DNA of 64,000 nucleotides from Octopus vulgaris. Lineage: Eukaryota. Made by a program: the position numbers and the translations under genes. Of the stretch, positions 1 to 34,950 are shown in pieces (position 1 is the stretch's first letter; each line of letters starts with the position of its first letter). Below the pieces are notes generated by a model, which saw only the letters and a list, made by a program, of their open reading frames with translations, made no database searches and was not told the origin of the DNA. The stretch spans positions 76,384,001 to 76,448,000 of the forward strand of contig OX597815.1 of the NCBI GenBank assembly GCA_951406725.2, in the 5' to 3' direction.

Positions 1-2162
1 ATTTCCAGCACATCTATCTATGTGTCCGCTGACCGGTATTTTGCGGTAATCAGGGTTTCTAATTTGTGATTTATGCACCGCCATCCTGTTATGTAAGCTA
101 TTTTTTGTATGGCCTATATACTGCCTATTGCAGCCTGCGCATGTTATGATGTAAATTAAGTTTTCTGATGCGCAGGTGAAGTTTGTTCTAATGGTGAACT
201 GGTGGCCTTGTTCCAGTATAAATTCTGATCCTTCTTTCAAGATGACACAGATTCCACAGTTGGGCCTTCCACATTTTCTAACTGCTGGTTTTGTGGTTGA
301 TGTTGAGTGCAGTGTAGCTTGGGTTAAAATCCTTTTCAAGGATTTTGGTTGCCGTTTACTTTTAATGATGGTGTGTGTTTCGAGGATCCGGTTCATCTTT
401 GGGTCTCCCTTTAGTAGGGCTGTGCTTTGTAGTATGGTGTTGAAGGCCTCATTGTTGAGTGGGTTGTGTGTAGAGATGTAGGGAAGGGTTTTTAATTGTT
501 CTTTCTTTTTTGGTTTTGTTTGTCTCAGGTCTTCTATACTTAATTTAAGTACCCATTGGATTGCACTGTCTATTAGGGGCTGTGGATAGTTTCTATTTGT
601 GAGTGTGGTTCTAAGTTCCTGGAGACGTGTGTGTTGGGTGTTTGTGTCTGATATTATGGTGCAAATCCTTCTAGTTAAACAAAAAGGGACATTCATTCTA
701 GTGTGTCGTGGGTGGCATGAATCAAAGGGTAGGTACTGTTTAGAGTCTGTCGGTTTATAGTAGATATCTGTCTCTATTTTGTTGCCGGTTTTCTTAATGA
801 GGATGTCTAAAAATGGTAATTCTTTTTCGTTGTGGTCCATCGTGAATTGTATATTGTCATTTATTCCATTTAATAGTATTTTAAATTCCTCAAGTTTCTC
901 TATACCTTTGTCCCAGATGATGAAACAGTCATCGAGGTATCTTTTCCAGTTGTTATGGATATAGGTGGCGAAGGTGTTTCCATATTTCTCGAGTGTTATC
1001 CGGTATAGTATTTTCTCGAGGTATCCCATCACTAGGTTGGCAAAAGATGGTGCAGTACGCGTGCCCATCGCTGTTCCCGATCTTTGCCTGTAGAAATCAT
1101 TGTCAAAAATAAAATAATTGTTCTCTAAAATGAATCTAAGTCCTTCTATTATAAGGTCTTTGTTTATGCGTGTTGGGAGTTCAAAGGGGTAGTTATTCAG
1201 CCAGAAGGTGATCGCTTCTATTCCTAGGTTGTGAGGGATGTTAGAATAAAGATTAACTACGTCGAATGATACTAGAAGGGTTTTCTCATTGACTGTTTTA
1301 GGGAGGTGGTTGAGCATATCTATATCGTCTCTTACGTAGCTTTTGATGTGTTTTAGGAAAGGTTTAAGAAGTGTGTCTTAAGAAATTGCTGAGGCGGTGA
1401 GTTTCACATGCTGGCCCTGCTATTATCGGTCTTAGTTTAAGATCATTTGGTGAAGGGATTTTGATGAGTGTCGGTGGATGTTTTGCACGTTTCTCTAATG
1501 GTTTGGCTTTTGTGTACCTTAGGGATACCATAGAACAAACTCGATTTGCATTTGAAGTTAGTGATGTATTCATACTCCTTGTTCGTGAGTCCTTCTTGGT
1601 ATGTGTTGATTAATGTCCTAAGGTTATGCATTATTTTTTGCTGGTTATACTGTTGGGCCCTTTCATAATACGTTTCATCTCTTAATAGGGATAGCACTAA
1701 ATTTTTATAATCGTTTGTATTCATTATTACTATCGCGTTGCCCTTATCTGCCTCCTTAATTGTTATTGTTTTGTCTTCTCTTAGTTTGATGAGGTTGTTC
1801 CATTCTCTTTTGTTGAAGTTAGGGCTGTGTTTTTGTTTCTTGATGAATTGAAACGGGAAATTAGTTATGTAGTCACAATAGCGGTCTAAGGCTTTATTCT
1901 TTCCCTTGGTGGGGGTGTAATTGCTCTTGTTTCTAGCTATTGAGTCCTCCTCTATTTGTTTGTCTTGAAATGCCTCGGTGAGTCTTAGTTTTCTGCAAAA
2001 TTCCGAAATATCATCTTTCATTTCATAGTAATTAGAACGTTGTGGGGTGGGTGTAAATTTAAGTCCTTTGGAGAGTATGCTTATTTCGTTAGGTGTAAGT
2101 TCTTTGTTTGAGAGATTGATTATCTTAATTACCTGAGGTTTCTTTTGTTTGTCTTTTGCCAT
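1..2162 (-). pseudogene. PLE RT + GIY-YIG endonuclease ORF with two single-base frameshifts (~1470 and ~1380)
   Basis: Frames 1443-2162, 1364-1573 and 1377->1 join into one RT-EN protein. The last frame is open to the window edge, so it is absent from the ORF track. Confidence 0.9.
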
Positions 2163-2955
2163 CGTGTGTCTCTGTTCCTGTGTGTAAGGTCTAAAAAATG
2201 GTTGGTGTAGTTATGTTCAAAGCTATTATTTATCTGTCTCATGTTGTTATAATTGTCAGAGTGAGTTTGTGGTGCTCTGTTCTGGAGTCTGTTGTTGAAC
2301 CTAGTGTTCCGTCTTAGTTCATCAGGTATATTGTGTTGGTAGTTGTTTCCTCCGTAGTGCATTTGTTGTTTGTTATGGTTGTATGGTTGGTTCCTGGGGT
2401 GGATGTTTGGTAGTAGCGTTTTGGTTTGGTTATGTGGGTTGTATTTTATAGTATTGTATGTTGTGGCTCTTAGGTTCGTGGAATGGTGTGGTGGGACCCT
2501 ATAAGTGTTTTGGGGTTGGTGTAGGTAGTGTGGGGTGCGTTTTAAATGCATTTTTCTGGTGTAGAGTGTGTTTGGATTTCTTGGTGGTTGTTCTGCTCTG
2601 TTGGTATGTCTATTTTCGAACTGGTGTGGTGGGCCTCTGTAGGTGTTTTGGGGTTGGTGTAGGTAGTGTGGGGTGTGTTTTAGGTGTACTTTTCTGGTGT
2701 AGAGTGTGGTAGGATTTCTTGGTGGTTGTTCCGTTCTGTTGGTATTTGGTTTTGATTTACTTAATTTTATGAAGGGGTTGTTGGATATGTGTTCATTTTT
2801 GAAGTTGGTTTCATAATCTAGAAACCAGATGGCGCTCTTTTCCCATCGTTGGAGGGACTTAAGTTCCTCTTTTTCACATTCTTCATTCCATAGTGCTGGT
2901 AATGTTTCAGTATTGATGTCGTCTATTAGTTTGATGACTTCTTCGTTTGATTTTT
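2129..2955 (-). CDS. Upstream ORF of the PLE (N-terminally truncated, >270 aa, P/H/N/T-rich C-terminal half)
   Basis: The frame of track ORF 2129-2551 stays open upstream to ~2950 ([47 protein letters not shown]...) and overlaps the RT ORF. Confidence 0.65.
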
Positions 2956-26543: not shown

Positions 26544-26996
26544 ATTCATATATTTTTTTTATATTTATAAAATTTTAAAATATTTAAAAAATATTTATAT
26601 ACATATATTTTATATGTATTTCTTATATTTTTTCTCACACACACACATACACATATATATATATATACTCACACATATAGCAAATATAACAAATTATTTT
26701 GAAAGACACTGTATTCTTCACTTCTCTCTAACCCTCCCTTCTTCCTCCTGCCTCATATTTTTGTGCCCCAGGGCTTGAACATATTGAAGCACTAAAGGTG
26801 CCTTTTTCTCTTCTGTTCTCATAATGCCATTCTTTTCTTTTCTTTCTTTCCTTATTTTTTTCACTTCCACTCTTTCGCTTTCTTTTTCTCTCTCTCTTTC
26901 TTATCAATTTGCCATCTTCCTTCTACAAATTCACTTCTGTCCTTTTACACAAACCTGTTTCCTTTAAAGCCACAAAGTCTGGACTAAGAAACTTTT

Positions 26997-27033
<37 letters not shown>

Positions 27034-27247
27034 CAATAATAATTCTCTAAAAGGGATATAGACAGTAACTGCTCGATAACATAAGGGACTAAAGCCATCT
27101 GAATATGGCTAGGGACAGGGCAGGGTGGTGGGGGTGTTACTGTTGCATTTAGCCCCAGGCGAACATCGACGTCACCAGAAAGGCTCGACACCGTCACGGT
27201 GCCCTTAACCTGCAAAGGGAGGTAATTCCCCGATGAAGCGGAAACCA

Positions 27248-27293
27248 CACACAGACCATGGTTTCAAGGTGTATTGCCTATCATCGGCGTGTG
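27248..27293 (-). ncRNA. Type I hammerhead ribozyme (copy 1)
   Basis: CACACG-CCGAUGA-U-AGG-CAAUACA-CCU-U-GAAAC-CAUG-GUC/UGUGUG. Confidence 0.8.
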
Positions 27294-27606
27294 GTAGGCC
27301 TCCGCTTCCTCGACGAATTCTCACTCTGCAGGATTTTCTTATATAGATTTTCAAGCAAAATACATTTGCTGATTTCGAAAATCTGTTCGAAAGCAATAAT
27401 AATTCTCTAAAAGGGATATAGACAGTAACTGCTCGATAACATAAGGGACTAAAGCCATCTGAATATGGCTAGGGACAGGGCAGGGTGGTGGGGGTGTTAC
27501 TGTTGCATTTAGCCCCAGGCGAACATCGACGTCACCAGAAAGGCTCGACACCGTCACGGTGCCCTTAACCTGCAAAGGGAGGTAATTCCCGATGAAGCGG
27601 AAACCA

Positions 27607-27652
27607 CACACGGACCATGGTTTCAAGGTGTATTGCCTATCATCGGCGTGTG
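27607..27652 (-). ncRNA. Type I hammerhead ribozyme (copy 2)
   Basis: Same motif with a perfect stem I, CACACG/CGUGUG. Confidence 0.82.
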
Positions 27653-28254
27653 GTAGGCCTCCGCTTCCTCGACGAATTCTCACTCTGCAGGATTTTCTTA
27701 TATAGATTTTCAAGCAAAATACATTTGCTGATTTCGAAAATCTGTTCGAAAGCAATAATAATTCTCTAAAAGGGATATAGACAGTAACTGCTCGATAACA
27801 TAAGGGACTAAAGCCATCTGAATATGGCTAGGGACAGGGCAGGGTGGTGGGGGTGTTACTGTTGCATTTAGCCCCAGGCGAACATCGACGTCACCAGAAG
27901 GCTCGACACCGTCACGGTGCCCTTAACCTGCAAAGGGAGGTAGGTTTCCGCTTCATCGGGGAATTACCTCCTTTGCAGGTTAAGGGCACCGTGACGGTGT
28001 CGAGCCTTTCTGGTGACGTCGATGTTCGCCTGGGGCTAAATGCAACAGTAACACCCCCACCACCCTGCCCTGTCCCTAGCCATATTCAGATGGCTTTAGT
28101 CCCTTATGTTATCGAGCAGTTACTGTCTATATCCCTTTTAGAGAATTATTATTGCTTTCGAACAGATTTTCGAAATCAGCAAATGTATTTTGCTTGAAAA
28201 TCTATATAAGAAAATCCTGCAGAGTGAGAATTCGTCGAGGAAGCGGAGGCCTAC

Positions 28255-28300
28255 CACACGCCGATGATAGGCAATACACCTTGAAACCATGGTCCGTGTG
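28255..28300 (+). ncRNA. Type I hammerhead ribozyme (copy 3), predicted cleavage after C28294
   Basis: Stem I 28255-28260/28295-28300, core CCGAUGA (U4C variant) and GAAA, palindromic stem III loop CAUG, GUC triplet; stem I extends via GAAGCGGA/UCCGCUUC. Confidence 0.82.
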
Positions 28301-28316
28301 TGGTTTCCGCTTCATC

Positions 28317-28416
28317 GGGGAATTACCTCCCTTTGCAGGTTAAGGGCACCGTGACGGTGTCGAGCCTTTCTGGTGACGTCGATGTTCGCCTGGGGCTAAA
28401 TGCAACAGTAACACCC
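28317..28416 (+). ncRNA. Unidentified structured RNA motif downstream of the HHR
   Basis: Nested stems UUGCA/UGCAA, GGCACCG/CGGUGUC and AGCC/GGCU enclosing a UCGA-loop hairpin; covaries with the copies at 31415-31515 (-) and 34358-34463. Confidence 0.6.
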
Positions 28417-28468
28417 CCACCACCCTGCCCTGTCCCTAGCCATATTCAGATGGCTTTAGTCCCTTATG

Positions 28469-28540
<72 letters not shown>

Positions 28541-28541
28541 A

Positions 28542-28689
28542 GGTGCAGGAGTGGGTGTGTGGTAAGTAACTTGCTTATCAACCACATGGTTTCGGGTTCA
28601 GTCCCACTGCGTTGCACCTTGGGCAAGTGTCTTCAACTATAGCCTTGTGAGTGGATTCGGTAGATGGAAGCTGAAAGAAGTCCGTCATA

Positions 28690-28775
<86 letters not shown>

Positions 28776-28875
28776 GCCAGCGCTGCCCTGACTGGCTTCC
28801 ATGCCGCTAGCACGTAAAAAGCACCATCCGACCATGGCCGTTGCCAGCTTTGTCTGGTCTCTGTGCCGGTGGCAC
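28542..28875 (+). mobile_element. SINE family A head, (TA)n, then GGCACGTAAAAAGCACC-type repeat units
   Basis: Similarity to 12723-12885 and 11500-11670. Confidence 0.75.
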
Positions 28876-28989
28876 AAAAAAAGTGTAAAGGTTTTTCCGG
28901 AACCCATGCATGGTCCTGGGAAAAACCTTTACACTTTTTTTAAAAACTTAGGATTACCTTAGATTCGAACTTAACCAAAGCTAACTTCC

Positions 28990-29916
28990 TTGATGTACCA
29001 TAAACCAAATGAATCCCTTAGATACATAGACATTAATTCTAACCACCCCAAAAATATACTAGACAACCTAGTGAAAAGTGTCTCCATTGGGATATCTAGC
29101 CTCTCTGCCACCAAAGATATCTTTAATGCCGCAGTCCCCTATTACAACGAGGCCCTGGCCCGCAGTGGCTTTAAAGATAAGATCACCTACATTAGCATAG
29201 CCCCACGCCCACCCAAGAAAAATAGGCGAAGACACATTAGCTGGTACAACCCCCCCTTCAACCGTGAAGTTTCAACACCTGTAGCTAAAATTTTCTTCAC
29301 TCTCTTACAAAAACACTTCCCCACCCAACATAAGTACTATACAATCCTTAATAAGAACACCATTAGACTCTCCTACTCCACCACACCCAATCTAGCTAGG
29401 AACCTAGCCAACAACGTCAAAAAACTTAATAAATCTACTTTTTCCGAAGCCCATCCAGCATCCGACAGCAATTGCAACTGCCCTGATAAGACTACTTGCC
29501 CCCTCAACAACAACTGCCTACAGAAAGATCTCGTCTACATATGCGATGTACGATCAGGCCCCGATGATAAAAGAAAATCGTACATCGGAATGACCTCAAA
29601 TAGTTTTAAGACCCGCTGGTACGCCCACACACACTCGTTCCGGCGACCTGACAAATCTAACCAGACTACTCTCGCCGCCCATATCTGGCACCTTAAAAGG
29701 ACCTCCATCTCCTTCAAGATCAAGTGGAGACTACTCCAGAGAGCGTGTTCTTACACAGGAGGCCATACCTGCTGTGACCTTTGCATTTCTGAGAGCTTGG
29801 AGATCTTATTCGTCAAAGGCCCTCTCCTCAACAAGATCTCGGAACACTCCCCAAACTGTATGCACAAAATCTATGCAAACTACAAAAATTACAGACCCAC
29901 CCGGCAACCCGATTGA
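28990..29916 (+). CDS. PLE (Naiad-type) RT thumb/linker + GIY-YIG endonuclease, N-terminally truncated
   Basis: YHKPN...SNHP, WYNPPF, KHFP, RLSYS, CNCPDKTTCPLNNNC, LVYIC...SYIGMT...FKTRW, CDLCISE, LLNK.SE...C.H. Confidence 0.9.
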   Translation: MMYHKPNESLRYIDINSNHPKNILDNLVKSVSIGISSLSATKDIFNAAVPYYNEALARSGFKDKITYISIAPRPPKKNRRRHISWYNPPFNREVSTPVAKIFFTLLQKHFPTQHKYYTILNKNTIRLSYSTTPNLARNLANNVKKLNKSTFSEAHPASDSNCNCPDKTTCPLNNNCLQKDLVYICDVRSGPDDKRKSYIGMTSNSFKTRWYAHTHSFRRPDKSNQTTLAAHIWHLKRTSISFKIKWRLLQRACSYTGGHTCCDLCISESLEILFVKGPLLNKISEHSPNCMHKIYANYKNYRPTRQPD

Positions 29917-30155
29917 CGACACCCCACCCACAAAACCCCCACCCCCACCGTTCCTTCATCACCCCCAATTACCTTCTCTCCTAAGACTATATACATGTGT
30001 ACAGATGTGTGCATGTGTGTGTGTGCACATATATATAAGTGCATATATGTAAATGTATGTGTGTGTGCATATGTATATGTACATATGTATGTGTAGGCGT
30101 GTATACGTGTGTATGTGTATATGTGTGCATGTTTGTATATGTATATATATGTGTA

Positions 30156-30520
30156 CTAGCAGTATCGCCCGGCGTTGCTCAGGTTTGTAAGGGAAATAAC
30201 TATAAAGCATTTTTAGAGAGTTATAGCCAAAAAATAGCAAAAAAATGGAAAAAAAATTATGGGAAATTTTTTTGAGTTAAAAAAGGTCGAGTTGCGTCCC
30301 CTAGACAGTCTGTGGTTTGTGTTTCTGATTCTCGACCCCATGTCGAATTTATCGATTTTTTTCAGAACTGGGGGAACTTTTCAAAATTTTCGCTACGTTA
30401 GTTTTGAATTATGACATTGGGCTATGTGTGTGTCAAGTTTCATCAGAATCGGTTGAAAGCCGTGGTCAGGGTGAGGGTACAAGCAAACAGACACACAGAA
30501 ACACGCACAGACAAACTGCC

Positions 30521-30530
<10 letters not shown>
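30156..30530 (-). mobile_element. Non-autonomous Helitron
   Basis: 3' end ...GAGCAACGCCGGGCGATACTGCTAG|T shared with 45706-46724. Confidence 0.75.
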
Positions 30531-30566
<36 letters not shown>

Positions 30567-30905
30567 GTATGTGTGTGTGTATATGTATGTATATGTGCAT
30601 ATGTTTGTATGTGTGTGTATGTATTTATGTATATGTGTGCGTGTACACGAGTATATATTTATATGTATGTATATGCATATGTATATGTTTATGTATGTAT
30701 ATATATATATGTGTGCATGAGTGTATATCGATATGTGTGTATGTATGTATGTATATGTGTATATGTATATATATGTATGCATGTATGTATTTATGTATAT
30801 ATATATATATGTGTGTGTGTGTATGTGTATGTATGTGTATATGCATGTATATATTTATGTATGCGTATGTGTTTATATATACATATCCTTGTATATTTGT
30901 GTATG

Positions 30906-30998
<93 letters not shown>

Positions 30999-31321
30999 AT
31001 GGACTTGTATATTTTTGTAGTGGTATATATGTATGTGTATATGTGTAGATATGTATATGTATGTACGTGTATGTATGTGTATGTATGTATAGATGCTTAT
31101 ATATGCGTATGTATATTTATATGCACATATGTTTTTATATGTGCATTTGCGTTTATATATGCATGCATATATTTATGTGTGTGTTTATGTTTACAGAAGT
31201 ATATTTATATATGTGTTTATATATGCATAGTTATATATATGTTTATATGAATGTGGGTACATTTATGTATGTATGCATATGTGTATTTGTATGTGTATAT
31301 ATGTATATATGGATGTATATG

Positions 31322-31364
<43 letters not shown>

Positions 31365-31746
31365 CATAAGGGACTAAAGCCATCTGAATATGGCTAGGGA
31401 CAGGGCAGGGTGGTGGGGGTGTTACTGTTGCATTTAGCCCCAGGCGAACATCAACGTCGCCAGATAGGCTTGACACCATCATGGCGTCCTCTATCCTGCA
31501 AAAGGAGATAATTCCCCCCCCCCCGATGCTTTGTGTGTGTGTGTGTGTGTGTGTGTGTCTGTGTGATTGGAGTAGGGGAGAGAGACAAATAGAGAAAAGG
31601 GAAAATAAAAATAAAAATAAAAATAAAAATAAGGGAGGAAGATGAGAGGAAAAAAATATATATGTGTGTGTGTATATATGGGTATATGTGTATGTGTATA
31701 TATATATGTGCGTGTGTGTGCGTGTATATATGTATATGTATATGTG

Positions 31747-31793
<47 letters not shown>

Positions 31794-31900
31794 ATGTGTA
31801 TTTGTATGTATGTGTGTGTGTTTGTATGTATATACATGTGCGTATGTATGTATATATATGTATATTCGCATGTGTATGTATGTGTGTTTGTATGTATATT
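30525..31900. repeat. Expanded (TA)/(TG)/(TATG) low-complexity region
   Basis: Directly visible; source of the spurious YIC/VCM ORFs. Confidence 0.9.
31363..31530 (-). mobile_element. Diverged ~170-nt partial copy of the 360-nt unit (structured motif + 3' hairpin, no HHR)
   Basis: Identical to the unit over 31363-31452; substitutions in the rest preserve pairing. Confidence 0.88.
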
Positions 31901-32248
31901 TATTTTATATGTCTTTTCATGTATATTTATCTACTTCTTCCCTCCACTTAACAATAACAAACTGAATACCTCCTCTTGACCACCAAAAAGCAATTGTCTT
32001 CTAATTTACCTAAAACCCTACCCCATATATCTGATTCTATTCAATTATTCTATTTATTCATTTATTTACTTTCTCACTGATTCTTCTCATTTCAAAAAAC
32101 TCTCTGGCCTTTTGACCACTCCCCTAAGAACAATAGCCTGTGCCCTATTTATCTCCTAAATACCAACTTACCCAAAAAACGTCCCCCACCACCACCACCC
32201 CATTAAATCTGCCTAAATTTATAAATACCAGACCTTATTTTGACAGCC

Positions 32249-32299
32249 AGCTTCCTGAAGATTTCATCTGAATGAAACAGTTCTAGTCCTGTAGAAGCT
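32249..32299 (+). ncRNA. Type I hammerhead ribozyme, predicted cleavage after A32293
   Basis: AGCUUC-CUGAAGA-U-UUC-AUCU-GAA-U-GAAA-CAG-uucuaguc-CUG-UA-GAAGCU. Confidence 0.82.
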
Positions 32300-32322
32300 C
32301 CTTCTATAAAATAAATATATAT

Positions 32323-32735
32323 AGGCGCAGGAGTGGCTGTGTGGTAAGTAGCTTGCTAACCAGCCACATGGTTCCGGGTTCAGTCCCACTGCGTGGCATC
32401 TTGGGCAAGTGTCTTCTGCTATAGCCCCGGGCTGACCAATGCCTTGTGAGTGGATTTGGTAGTCGGAAACTGAAAGAAGCCTGTCGTATATATGTATATA
32501 TATGTATGTGTGTGTTTGTTTGTGTATCTGTGTTTGTCCCCTTAGCATTGCTTGACAGCCGATGCTGGTGTGTTTAGGTCCCCGTCACTTAGCGGTTTGG
32601 CAAAAGAGACCGATAGAATAAGTACTGGGCTTACAAAGAATAAGTCCCGGGGTCGATTTGCTTGACTAAAGGCGGTGCTCCAGCATGGCCGCAGTCAAAT
32701 GACTGAAACAAGTAAAAGAGTAAAAGAGTAAGAGT
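32323..32735 (+). mobile_element. SINE family A, full length, young
   Basis: Colinear with 12723-13110; CpGs retained. Confidence 0.92.
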
Positions 32736-32742
32736 ATATATA

Positions 32743-32810
<68 letters not shown>

Positions 32811-33427
32811 ATTGACAGGCTTCTTCCGGCAGTTTCCATCTACCAGATACACTCATAAAGTTTTGGTTGGCACCTGGTGGCTTTAGTAGAAAAGACTGAA
32901 CTTGAAAAGTGCAACTGGGAAGCATGTCAATCAATTTCACAATGATAATAATGATGATGATGATGATGATGATGATGTTGGTTATGATGATGATATCAAT
33001 CATGATGACAATGATGATAAAATAACATTTATCTGTTCCCCAATACTTTATCACACCAAAGCCTATCTTCCGTTTTCACTTTTCTAGCCTTTAATCCATG
33101 AAACAGCTGTTGAAGACCTCTTTTGTTTGTAATTCTAGGTTTATACACATATAAACATATATAGGTTTAAAAAGTTATTTGCAAAATAATTAGTAATTAA
33201 TTGATTTCAACCATCTGTTTATACAGATCATATTTCACTGGAAAATTTTATTCACTTGGCCCAAAATTTATGGAACAATAAAATAATATGAACTAATTTA
33301 TTGTGAAAAAGTCAGAAGGCATGAGAAGTGCTAATATTTTTGAACTCTATCTTTTATCTTTCACTTGTTTTAGTCATTGATCTGTGGCCATACTGTGGCA
33401 TCACCTTGAAGAGTTTTAGTTGAACAA

Positions 33428-34260
33428 ATGTGGAAGTTTCTGGAGAAATGTAAACCATACTTCAATAGCAACAGGAAGTGCAGGTTGTGCCTGGCTGAGA
33501 AGAGAGCAGTTTTAAAGGGTACCCAGTGCTTAGATATTTACCTGAATAGCAGAAGTGAAGTGCTTGATCTTTGCCCACATGAAAGGAAGTACACTCTATC
33601 ATATCTGTGTGCCCCATCATGACTACAACCACCAATACCCCAACCTCAGCATTCCACCAATACACTTGAGCCCAGCAAAGAGTTTGACCAGAGCAGACAC
33701 CAATGCACCCACATACATACAAGCATGCCCCAACAAAGCAGACACCTATCAAACAGCTTGTCTTCCACCACTCCCAACATATACCCATACACACACTGCA
33801 CTCTAACATAAAGCTCTCATGACCTTAGCCAATACAGAAAGAAAACAGACTAATGAACACAATTATATATACCTGCACCTCTGGAAAAAATTATACATAT
33901 GAAACCATTACACACCACAAATTACATTCCTACAGAAGCACCACACTTAATAATGTACACATTTCCCACAAACACTACAAGATAACTCTTAATAGCTTTA
34001 CAGTGAATCTAACCAAGGGTCATGACTCCTAACCTAGTCCTCTGCTCATTTTCATTTCACCATCTTTTTTACAGCAACCACAAACTGAATGTGTCCATTC
34101 ACCTCTGACAAGAGAGAGCAGTCCCCATATTCCTTTTGATATTGGCTAACTCTAATAAGTATAGGGTTATTTAATTGATTGTTGCCTAACACTCCATTGT
34201 ATTCCTAGCGAAACCAATTGGTAAGACCAGCCATGATGGATATATAATACTATACATTTT
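33428..34260 (+). mobile_element. 3' fragment of a second Naiad-type PLE with a 3' UTR/pLTR remnant
   Basis: WKFLEKCKPY...KCRLCLAEKRAVL...LNSRSEVLDLCPHERKYTL; GAAACCAATTGGTA HHR-like half at 34210-34223. Confidence 0.75.
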
Positions 34261-34280
34261 AGATAATATATATATATATA

Positions 34281-34499
34281 GCAAGACTTACTACCCTGGA
34301 CTGATGACGAGCAATACACTCAGAAACATATGTCTTTAGGTGCTAGTCCCAGCTGGCGGGGGTGATTGCCTCCCCTTTGCAAATATAAGGACACAGAAAA
34401 TGTGTCAAAGCCGACAGGAAACATCGATGTTTCCTAGGGCTAAATGGCAGTGGTGTAATTCCCTTACAGGACTGTCAAGTTGAGTTGACAGTATACAAC

Positions 34500-34503
<4 letters not shown>
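34281..34503 (+). mobile_element. Diverged relative of the 360-nt unit (HHR + structured motif + 3' hairpin) between (TA)n tracts
   Basis: Same module order; same loop CAAUACA, CCTCCC..TTTGCA, AGCC...GGGCTAAATG. Confidence 0.75.
34295..34340 (+). ncRNA. Type I hammerhead ribozyme, predicted cleavage after C34334
   Basis: CCUGGA-CUGAUGA-C-GAG-CAAUACA-CUC-A-GAAAC-AUAU-GUC-UUUAGG. Confidence 0.82.
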
Positions 34504-34555
<52 letters not shown>

Positions 34556-34574
34556 GCAACAAATTAATTTGATT

Positions 34575-34950
34575 GTTTCTCATCAGTGGTAATGGGTATG
34601 AAGCTGAAAGTGTATCTTGAGTACTAGATTTGCAAACTCCTTATCAATGGTCCATTGATGTTCTCTTTCTTTTTTATTTTGTATTTATCTAATCCCATTT
34701 GTGTCCAGGGGACAACTGATATCCAAAACTGAACATATTTTTTCTTTGTGATCCCACACAACAATATCTGACCAGCTGTGTTTTAACTTGGTAGCTATTT
34801 AAATTTTGATACCCCACCAGTATTCTTTTGACCCATAGGTCTTAATACATGCAATTTTGTTTGTTTTCCATTATTCTGTTTCAGATCAGCCTGACCACTC
34901 ACTGTACCATGCCTCATAGGAAGACTATATCAGGAAGAATTCTCTCATAG
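34575..34950 (-). mobile_element. R4/Dong-like (RLE) LINE fragment
   Basis: LPMRHGTV...EYWWGIKI...KHSWSDIVVWDHKEKICSVLDISCPLD. Confidence 0.7.

Follow-up and report, generated by a model that had tools for sequence, protein, structure and literature searches.

We find that a 100-nt stretch of Octopus vulgaris DNA, which a sequence-only reading had taken for a structured RNA motif beside a hammerhead ribozyme, belongs to a larger fold that spans a whole tandem unit. The unit has the anatomy of a Penelope-like element (PLE), with inverted arrays set in (TA)n runs and a tail at one end, and five helices of its fold (S, A, B, P4 and H3) covary. Hairpin A and arm B, the two elements recognised at the outset, are two branches of this larger fold; the feature is real but had been mis-folded. 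Covariation demonstrates structure, not a binding partner. As to function, we lean towards the view that the whole 355-360-nt monomer fold of this non-coding PLE-type retrozyme is a scaffold that binds and positions a PLE reverse transcriptase (RT) supplied in trans. Neither the class of element nor its hammerhead or two-site tail is new; we found no description of such a fold in the literature searched, a set that lay outside subscription papers, repeat libraries, figure images and bioRxiv supplements.

The window, meaning the whole 64,000-nt stretch analysed, comes from a microsatellite-rich genome of 2.8 Gb. The flagged 100 nt sit inside a 360-nt unit that carries a type I hammerhead. The features of this locus, in window positions, are as follows.

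27032..28470: family-A1 insertion, in which 360-nt units form an inverted tandem array flanked by (TA)n runs
27032-27942: minus arm of the A1 insertion, ending at site 2, tail included
27943-28470: plus arm of the A1 insertion, ending at site 1
27646 and 27287: additional hammerhead cores in the minus arm of the A1 array
27972-27979 with 28216-28223, plus strand: helix S pairing in the internal plus copy
28045-28052 with 28119-28126, plus strand: P4 pairing in the internal plus copy
28110..28156, plus strand: 47-nt tail spanning site 1 to site 2 (P4 3' strand 28119-28126, hairpin H5 28132-28144)
~28156, plus strand: site 2
28164..28210, plus strand: long hairpin H7, the last branch ahead of helix S closure (from the fold)
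After H7: TATA-like run, a possible internal promoter
28255..28300, plus strand: type I hammerhead with core CCGAUGA from 28261 and palindromic helix III (from the sequence)
After 28294, plus strand: predicted hammerhead cleavage point
28332..28342, plus strand: 5' strand of long-range helix S (UUUGCAGG..)
28345..28361, plus strand: hairpin A, a branch of the multiloop
28363..28400, plus strand: arm B (AGCC/GGCU, internal loop, inner stem; 28363-28397) plus invariant CUAAA
28405..28412, plus strand: 5' strand of helix P4, whose partner lies in the tail
28437..28456, plus strand: hairpin H3, loop YAUUNAGW, 13-16 nt upstream of site 1
28460..28470, plus strand: site 1, the array end joined to (TA)n and putative first RT start
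31360..31517, minus strand: subfamily-A2 copy, 5'-truncated, ending at site 1 in (TA)n
34280..34503, plus strand: family-B copy that carries a hammerhead (core at 34301) and stops at site 1 in (TA)n

Other loci share the plan of the window array (inverted units, (TA)n, an extension on one arm), and tandem arrays reach at least eight units on one strand, with a hammerhead in each unit. This anatomy agrees with published accounts of Penelope-like elements (10.1101/2021.04.23.441226) and of non-LTR retrozymes (PMC7229834; bioRxiv 10.64898/2026.07.22.740005).

The unit is abundant and diverse. A two-block pattern has at least 7,329 exact matches genome-wide, against 0 for the reversed control, and searches of its own genome resolved 13 subfamilies, which fall into groups A, D, C, B and E, with groups G and H also seen. 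Covariation was counted with one natural copy per row over 13 subfamily rows. Three loci (L179 40-295 (+), L313 and L314) represent more diverged subfamilies of the unit in which arm B has undergone further compensatory changes, as judged by eye; of these, L313 alone entered the main counts. Matches to the pattern in metagenomes (27) and viruses (4) were treated as chance, since they bear no likeness outside the pattern. At least half of the unit's words are contained in 20 sequencing runs from nine studies and five organisms, none of the listed runs being from an RNA source. A contig closes the unit on itself in all four runs examined, where a circle and tandem DNA look alike.

Hammerhead cores vary between families: CUGAUGA in B and E, CCGAUGA in A1, UUGAUGA in A2 and UUGACAA in D. 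In several families the core is altered (C4, or U3 with G8). The UUGACAA-type U3-A8 covariant is known from PLEs (PMC4209133). The helix III loop switches among palindromes, CCAUGG and CCUAGG, with CUGCAG in C and CAUAUG in B (L192-L221, compared with window 28287-28294), as expected if the hammerhead acts as a dimer.

When the 100-nt piece was folded alone, the flagged copy was no better than its shuffles (z -0.42), and the other two copies in the window gave -1.66 and -2.49. Whole monomers, each tested against 40 shuffles, fold below them in five of five cases, with z from -4.3 to -13.1. Helix S forms in the complete monomer only: UUUGCA and the linker that follows it pair with a segment ~250 nt downstream, just ahead of the next hammerhead. 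This helix closes a multiloop, and the stalk below it runs into hammerhead helix I. Six of its 11 pairs (5 and 7-11) changed on both sides, in an ungapped count from both ends over ten monomers; the seven pairs aligned by MAFFT are 97.4% paired, a value that 0 of 500 shuffles reached. Helix S duplexes are also stronger within a family than across families when A/D, B/C and E are compared.

P4 joins the strand after GGGCUAAAU to the PLE tail. Six of its nine pairs are two-sided and the helix is 88% paired over the rows; RNAalifold recovered it unprompted. The same fraction, six of nine, was two-sided in nine later-fetched copies (the eight tail-bearing copies that passed the filter among 20 new stretches, plus L313, added by hand), in alignments that were anchored on the helix start and therefore lean towards the helix, and in which families A and E share CAGUA at this place. 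Calculated duplex energies agree within families: the B 5' strand gives -17.8 kcal/mol with B tails and -6.7 with A tails, and A strands with B tails give -2.2. H3 has three two-sided pairs among six, and H5 and H7 are further branches of the multiloop, which is five- or six-way with variable linkers. Across families the unpaired letters CUAAA, GAUG and the H3 loop are invariant. For the most part, the two-sided cells reflect a small number of splits between lineages (A/C/D, B, E and G), not many independent events.

Unconstrained folding yields the full architecture for the A2, A2b, A3, D3 and C1 monomers and departs from it in P4 or arm B for A1, A1b, D1, D1b, C2 and an incomplete E copy. 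One family-B monomer gives an alternative partner for the P4 strand, and another gives P4 itself. For A1, the youngest family and that of the flagged copy, the minimum-energy fold is without P4 and hairpin A, and the comparative fold lies 5.8 kcal/mol higher. RNAalifold run on whole-length MAFFT alignments missed S and P4 owing to small indels.

Part of what had been read from three copies holds across the subfamilies. The letters quoted are present in all three copies at the positions given for them; the structured RNA beside the hammerhead is conserved, and it is without an Rfam match. In hairpin A, 89.7% of 78 cells are paired and two of six pairs changed on both sides (two family-E rows are misaligned), and for arm B RNAalifold draws nine pairs, all of them paired in 13 of 13 rows and three changed on both sides. 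The blocks CUCC, UUUG, AGCC and GGGCUAAA are likewise kept. However, the outer stem proposed to enclose these elements (GGGG..UUAC/GUAA..CCCC with UUGCA/UGCAA) has 75.1% of 169 cells paired, a level matched by 222 of 500 shuffles, and just one of its 13 pairs is two-sided. We set it aside; both of its strands have better-supported long-range partners. The three-way junction built on that stem and on a CUCC-AGG pairing is superseded by the whole-monomer fold, which extends beyond the 100 nt first marked out. The G-C to A-U double change reported for hairpin A at 31415-31515 proved private to the window copy, occurring in 1 of the 100 matches listed among 221; in the same listed matches the subfamily of that copy carries G.U where the window copy has A-U. 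The A-U is not a lineage change and fits a private CpG transition.

Two further local pairings were abandoned. A 5' hairpin, GGRGG/YCUCC, is seen in the motif folded alone and disappears in whole monomers, where its bases join the stalk; it may be a folding intermediate. A UUUG/UAAA pairing was dropped in favour of helix S.

The kinds of substitution in these helices bear on whether the conserved blocks work as RNA or as DNA, for example as an internal promoter or an endonuclease recognition site. Each unit has a TATA-like run in its sequence, and the tail of Drosophila Penelope is required for endonuclease recognition (cited in PMC11167929). However, compensatory changes link strands up to 250 nt apart, and G.U types outnumber A.C types by 12 to 2, which points to single-stranded RNA on one strand and places the fold on the hammerhead strand. 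We therefore regard a DNA role as improbable.

The sequence-only reading had offered three functions: RT recognition or priming, dimerisation, or a new ribozyme-associated RNA class. The first gained support, since most arrays stop at one of two points whose place in the fold is constant (see below); the other two did not. Dimerisation would make arm B a kissing-loop signal for a dimeric hammerhead or for two-ended priming, and it draws on the self-complementary GUCGAU of A1 and B, on palindromic helix III loops in A1, A2, B and C, and on the use of two templates' worth of ends by insertions. Yet families C (310 matches) and E amplified without the arm-B palindrome, and its CG core gives way to wobble pairs in A2 and D, so that a kissing-loop signal conserved across lineages is not found. 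Nor is the perfect palindrome of the copy at 34358 typical, most family-B copies reading GUCGAU. Hence, we consider a kissing loop quite improbable.

A second ribozyme, acting in cleavage or ligation, could account for an invariant unpaired CUAAA next to a helix junction. However, the domain matches none of the ribozyme models in Rfam, the multiloop is five- or six-way with variable linkers, and the 5' ends of copies have no peak; we judge this reading very improbable, and a new ribozyme is left without support. Targeted scans for HDV-like, twister, twister-sister, pistol, hatchet, hairpin and SECIS models were blank at E<=10 in three family copies and at E<=2 at three more loci, though these scans also missed the evident hammerhead. 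Over the whole window at E<=5, the best 150 of 220 Rfam matches are almost all microsatellite-driven miRNA models, none of them on the flagged stretch. Attempts to match HDV-like, pistol, twister, hatchet and VS topologies by eye, against their consensus structures, failed across families. A tRNA-derived SINE was also discarded: ARAGORN reports 0 genes in 26900-34600, and the targeted Rfam scans gave no tRNA match.

We examined where copies stop. Among 210 distinct downstream contexts, 34 continue into another unit and 176 end, and 159 of the 176 arm ends fall at two homologous sites, in four family groups (end positions are local-alignment ends, D copies being scored against the A1 reference). 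Site 1, with 94 ends, is 13-16 nt downstream of H3, and the 3' strand of P4 follows 6-9 nt later; site 2, 44-55 nt past site 1, accounts for 65; and 17 ends lie elsewhere. On the fold, site 1 lies just after H3 in the loop closed by P4, and site 2 lies beyond P4 and H5. The distances of both sites from H3 and P4 are preserved even between families that differ in their P4 letters. Where both arms of a locus run out into (TA)n, the arms split sites 1 and 2 between them in 20 of 21 rows and, counted by distinct insertion, in 19 of 20, as in PLE-type inverted or partial-tandem insertions with a tail at one end. Most two-site ends run into (TA)n, an AT-rich microsatellite target of the kind expected for PLE mobilisation; for ends at the modal A-group positions the counts are 29 of 33 and 21 of 23.

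These ends match a published two-site signature. Purified PLE protein nicks both strands of AT-rich DNA (Frangieh et al., PMC11167929); reverse transcription begins at two internal positions, both 3' of the hammerhead and one within a stem-loop, which mark out the tail, and both strands are extended, with a dimer predicted and a protein-binding region inferred near the starts (PMC11167929). On the strength of that match we infer that the two array ends are RT starts. The 5' ends, by contrast, spread evenly round the unit: 10 of 128 lie within 8 nt of the cleavage site, where ~6 are expected (an approximate figure, from 151 loci). There are 44 arms longer than one unit, the longest of 2,571 nt. 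Even 5' ends and multi-unit arms argue that the template is not mainly a linear cleaved monomer; since helix S requires the whole monomer and arms run through the hammerhead again and again, the template would be a circle or an uncut multimer.

A fold of this kind might instead have been selected for RNA processing or survival, through hammerhead folding, juxtaposed ends for host ligation or a nuclease-resistant circle, with the RT starting from a short local sequence or an AU-rich junction. Whole monomers are far more stable than shuffles, helix S exists only in the complete monomer, any retrozyme circle should form a stable rod, and extensive self-pairing has been described for the circles of metazoan retrozymes (PMC7229834). 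Stability, however, needs no invariant unpaired letters such as CUAAA, GAUG and the H3 loop, and it leaves unexplained why ends keep their spacing to H3 and P4 in families with changed P4 letters. We think selection for processing or survival alone rather unlikely. We take the multibranch head for a probable RT scaffold because the ends are fixed relative to H3 and P4 while helix letters change and unpaired letters do not.

Under the scaffold reading, the unit would be transcribed, probably from the TATA-like run inside each repeat, and monomers or circles would fold as a hammerhead-capped stalk with a multibranch head. A PLE RT-endonuclease, probably dimeric, would bind the head, nick both (TA)n strands and prime them from different sites, one strand from site 1 and one from site 2. 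Copying round a circle or along an uncut multimer would then give two outward-facing tandem arms, one bearing the tail. Counting against this picture are the lack of an autonomous partner at the loci searched (see below), the minimum-energy fold of A1, the small number of lineages that carry the covariation, the rod shape to be expected of any such circle, and the altered hammerhead cores. In A, B, C and G the P4 5' strand could, as judged by eye, pair alternatively with letters at site 1, and we speculate that this forms a two-state switch between the two starts. PLE RTs are the closest eukaryotic relatives of telomerase, and how they recognise RNA and choose two internal starts is at stake, as is whether animal retrozymes really move via PLE machinery. 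With a helix-level map that includes natural compensatory changes, and starts placed from 176 ends, break-and-repair mutants can test both questions.

We looked for an autonomous partner. A PLE open reading frame is joined to the unit at 0 of 147 motif loci, and no terminal repeat is shared with an autonomous RT/GIY-YIG element among these loci and 30 GIY-YIG loci (the 30 fetched after scoring 150 of 6,136 candidates). The sole motif match among the 30 is a separate, opposite-strand insertion, not a partner. An abundant 781-aa RT/GIY-YIG PLE family, presumably Neptune-like, ends in a different repeat. A frameshifted copy of this family, which has 781-aa open frames elsewhere, occupies window 1-2300 (minus strand); its terminal repeat holds a degenerate hammerhead, and the motif was not found in it. 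At 28870-29985 (plus strand), 400 nt from the flagged array, is a 313-codon C-terminal fragment of a different PLE-like clade with WYNPP and YIGMT motifs. It has no Pfam match at cut-off and has a short inverted 5' end; a similar frame occurs in L138 1-620.

Other repeats touch the units. In seven of 64 family-B/E hammerhead copies a foreign 3' end containing AATAAA lies ~25-30 nt ahead of the core, and these ends are of three or more kinds (L101/L102, G000:C1:33389497-33394567; L047/L052/L100; L036, L058, L072, L138, L284 and L286). One kind contains a broken frame encoding a CCHC zinc knuckle (a sub-threshold PF00098 match, E 0.001) and is flanked in L101/L102 by a ~20-nt duplication. This looks like a target-specific LINE, which we take to be Tx1-like, inserting into retrozyme units, the composite then being moved by the PLE route. 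Separately, the dispersed repeat D19, of at least ~146 nt and probably a SINE, has eight copies in the window (12744, 14750, 17505, 18637, 28563, 32345, 55254 and 58960).

Among known systems, the unit would work like a PLE terminal-repeat template, and by its sequence features it falls within the non-LTR retrozymes, defined as non-coding tandem units of ~170-400 nt with a type I hammerhead in each; ours are 360 nt. Those of animals (PMC7229834; bioRxiv 10.64898/2026.07.22.740005) are likewise non-coding ~350-360-nt tandem units with a type I hammerhead, proposed to be PLE-mobilised circles. As far as their accessible text goes, those papers give minimum-energy folds or sequence trees, whereas here five covarying helices and two ends are mapped on one fold. 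Penelope is listed among the expanded repeats of coleoids, with hammerheads unmentioned in the accessible part of that account (PMC8967140).

With the pLTR and tail of PLEs, and Anolis PAc in particular (PMC11167929; 10.1101/2021.04.23.441226), the unit shares inverted and partial-tandem insertions into AT-rich or (TA)n DNA, with a tail on one side, and, as we read the array ends, two RT starts 3' of the hammerhead. Judged by eye from its letters, PAc RNA (PMC11167929 Fig. S1B) also has a long-range helix, CAUGGCC/GGCCAUG, around an AC-rich stretch. Unlike PAc, the unit is non-coding, site 1 lies ~175 nt after the cleavage site rather than ~85-90, and the tail is 44-55 nt rather than 30-40.

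PLE, TERT and DRT10 are stated to belong to one RT clade (PMC12632851). The likeness to the telomerase RNA template region and to the DRT10 ncRNA (PMC12632851) is one of geometry alone, in that a single strand to be copied follows closely on the 3' side of a stem-loop. Unlike in those systems, copying has to pass through H3 and take in the entire unit, with no short repeat template or realignment; a telomerase-type template domain was accordingly rejected, as copies run through H3 and over several units. A bolder proposal, which we put forward tentatively and with considerable doubt, is that PLE RTs read a telomerase-RNA-like scaffold, in which a helix-enclosed strand after a stem-loop sets one start and a second RNA state the other, one RNP priming both target strands on circular RNA. 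If true, this would provide the first covariation-defined model of a PLE recognition RNA and would link retrotransposon templates with the RNAs of telomerase and DRT10.
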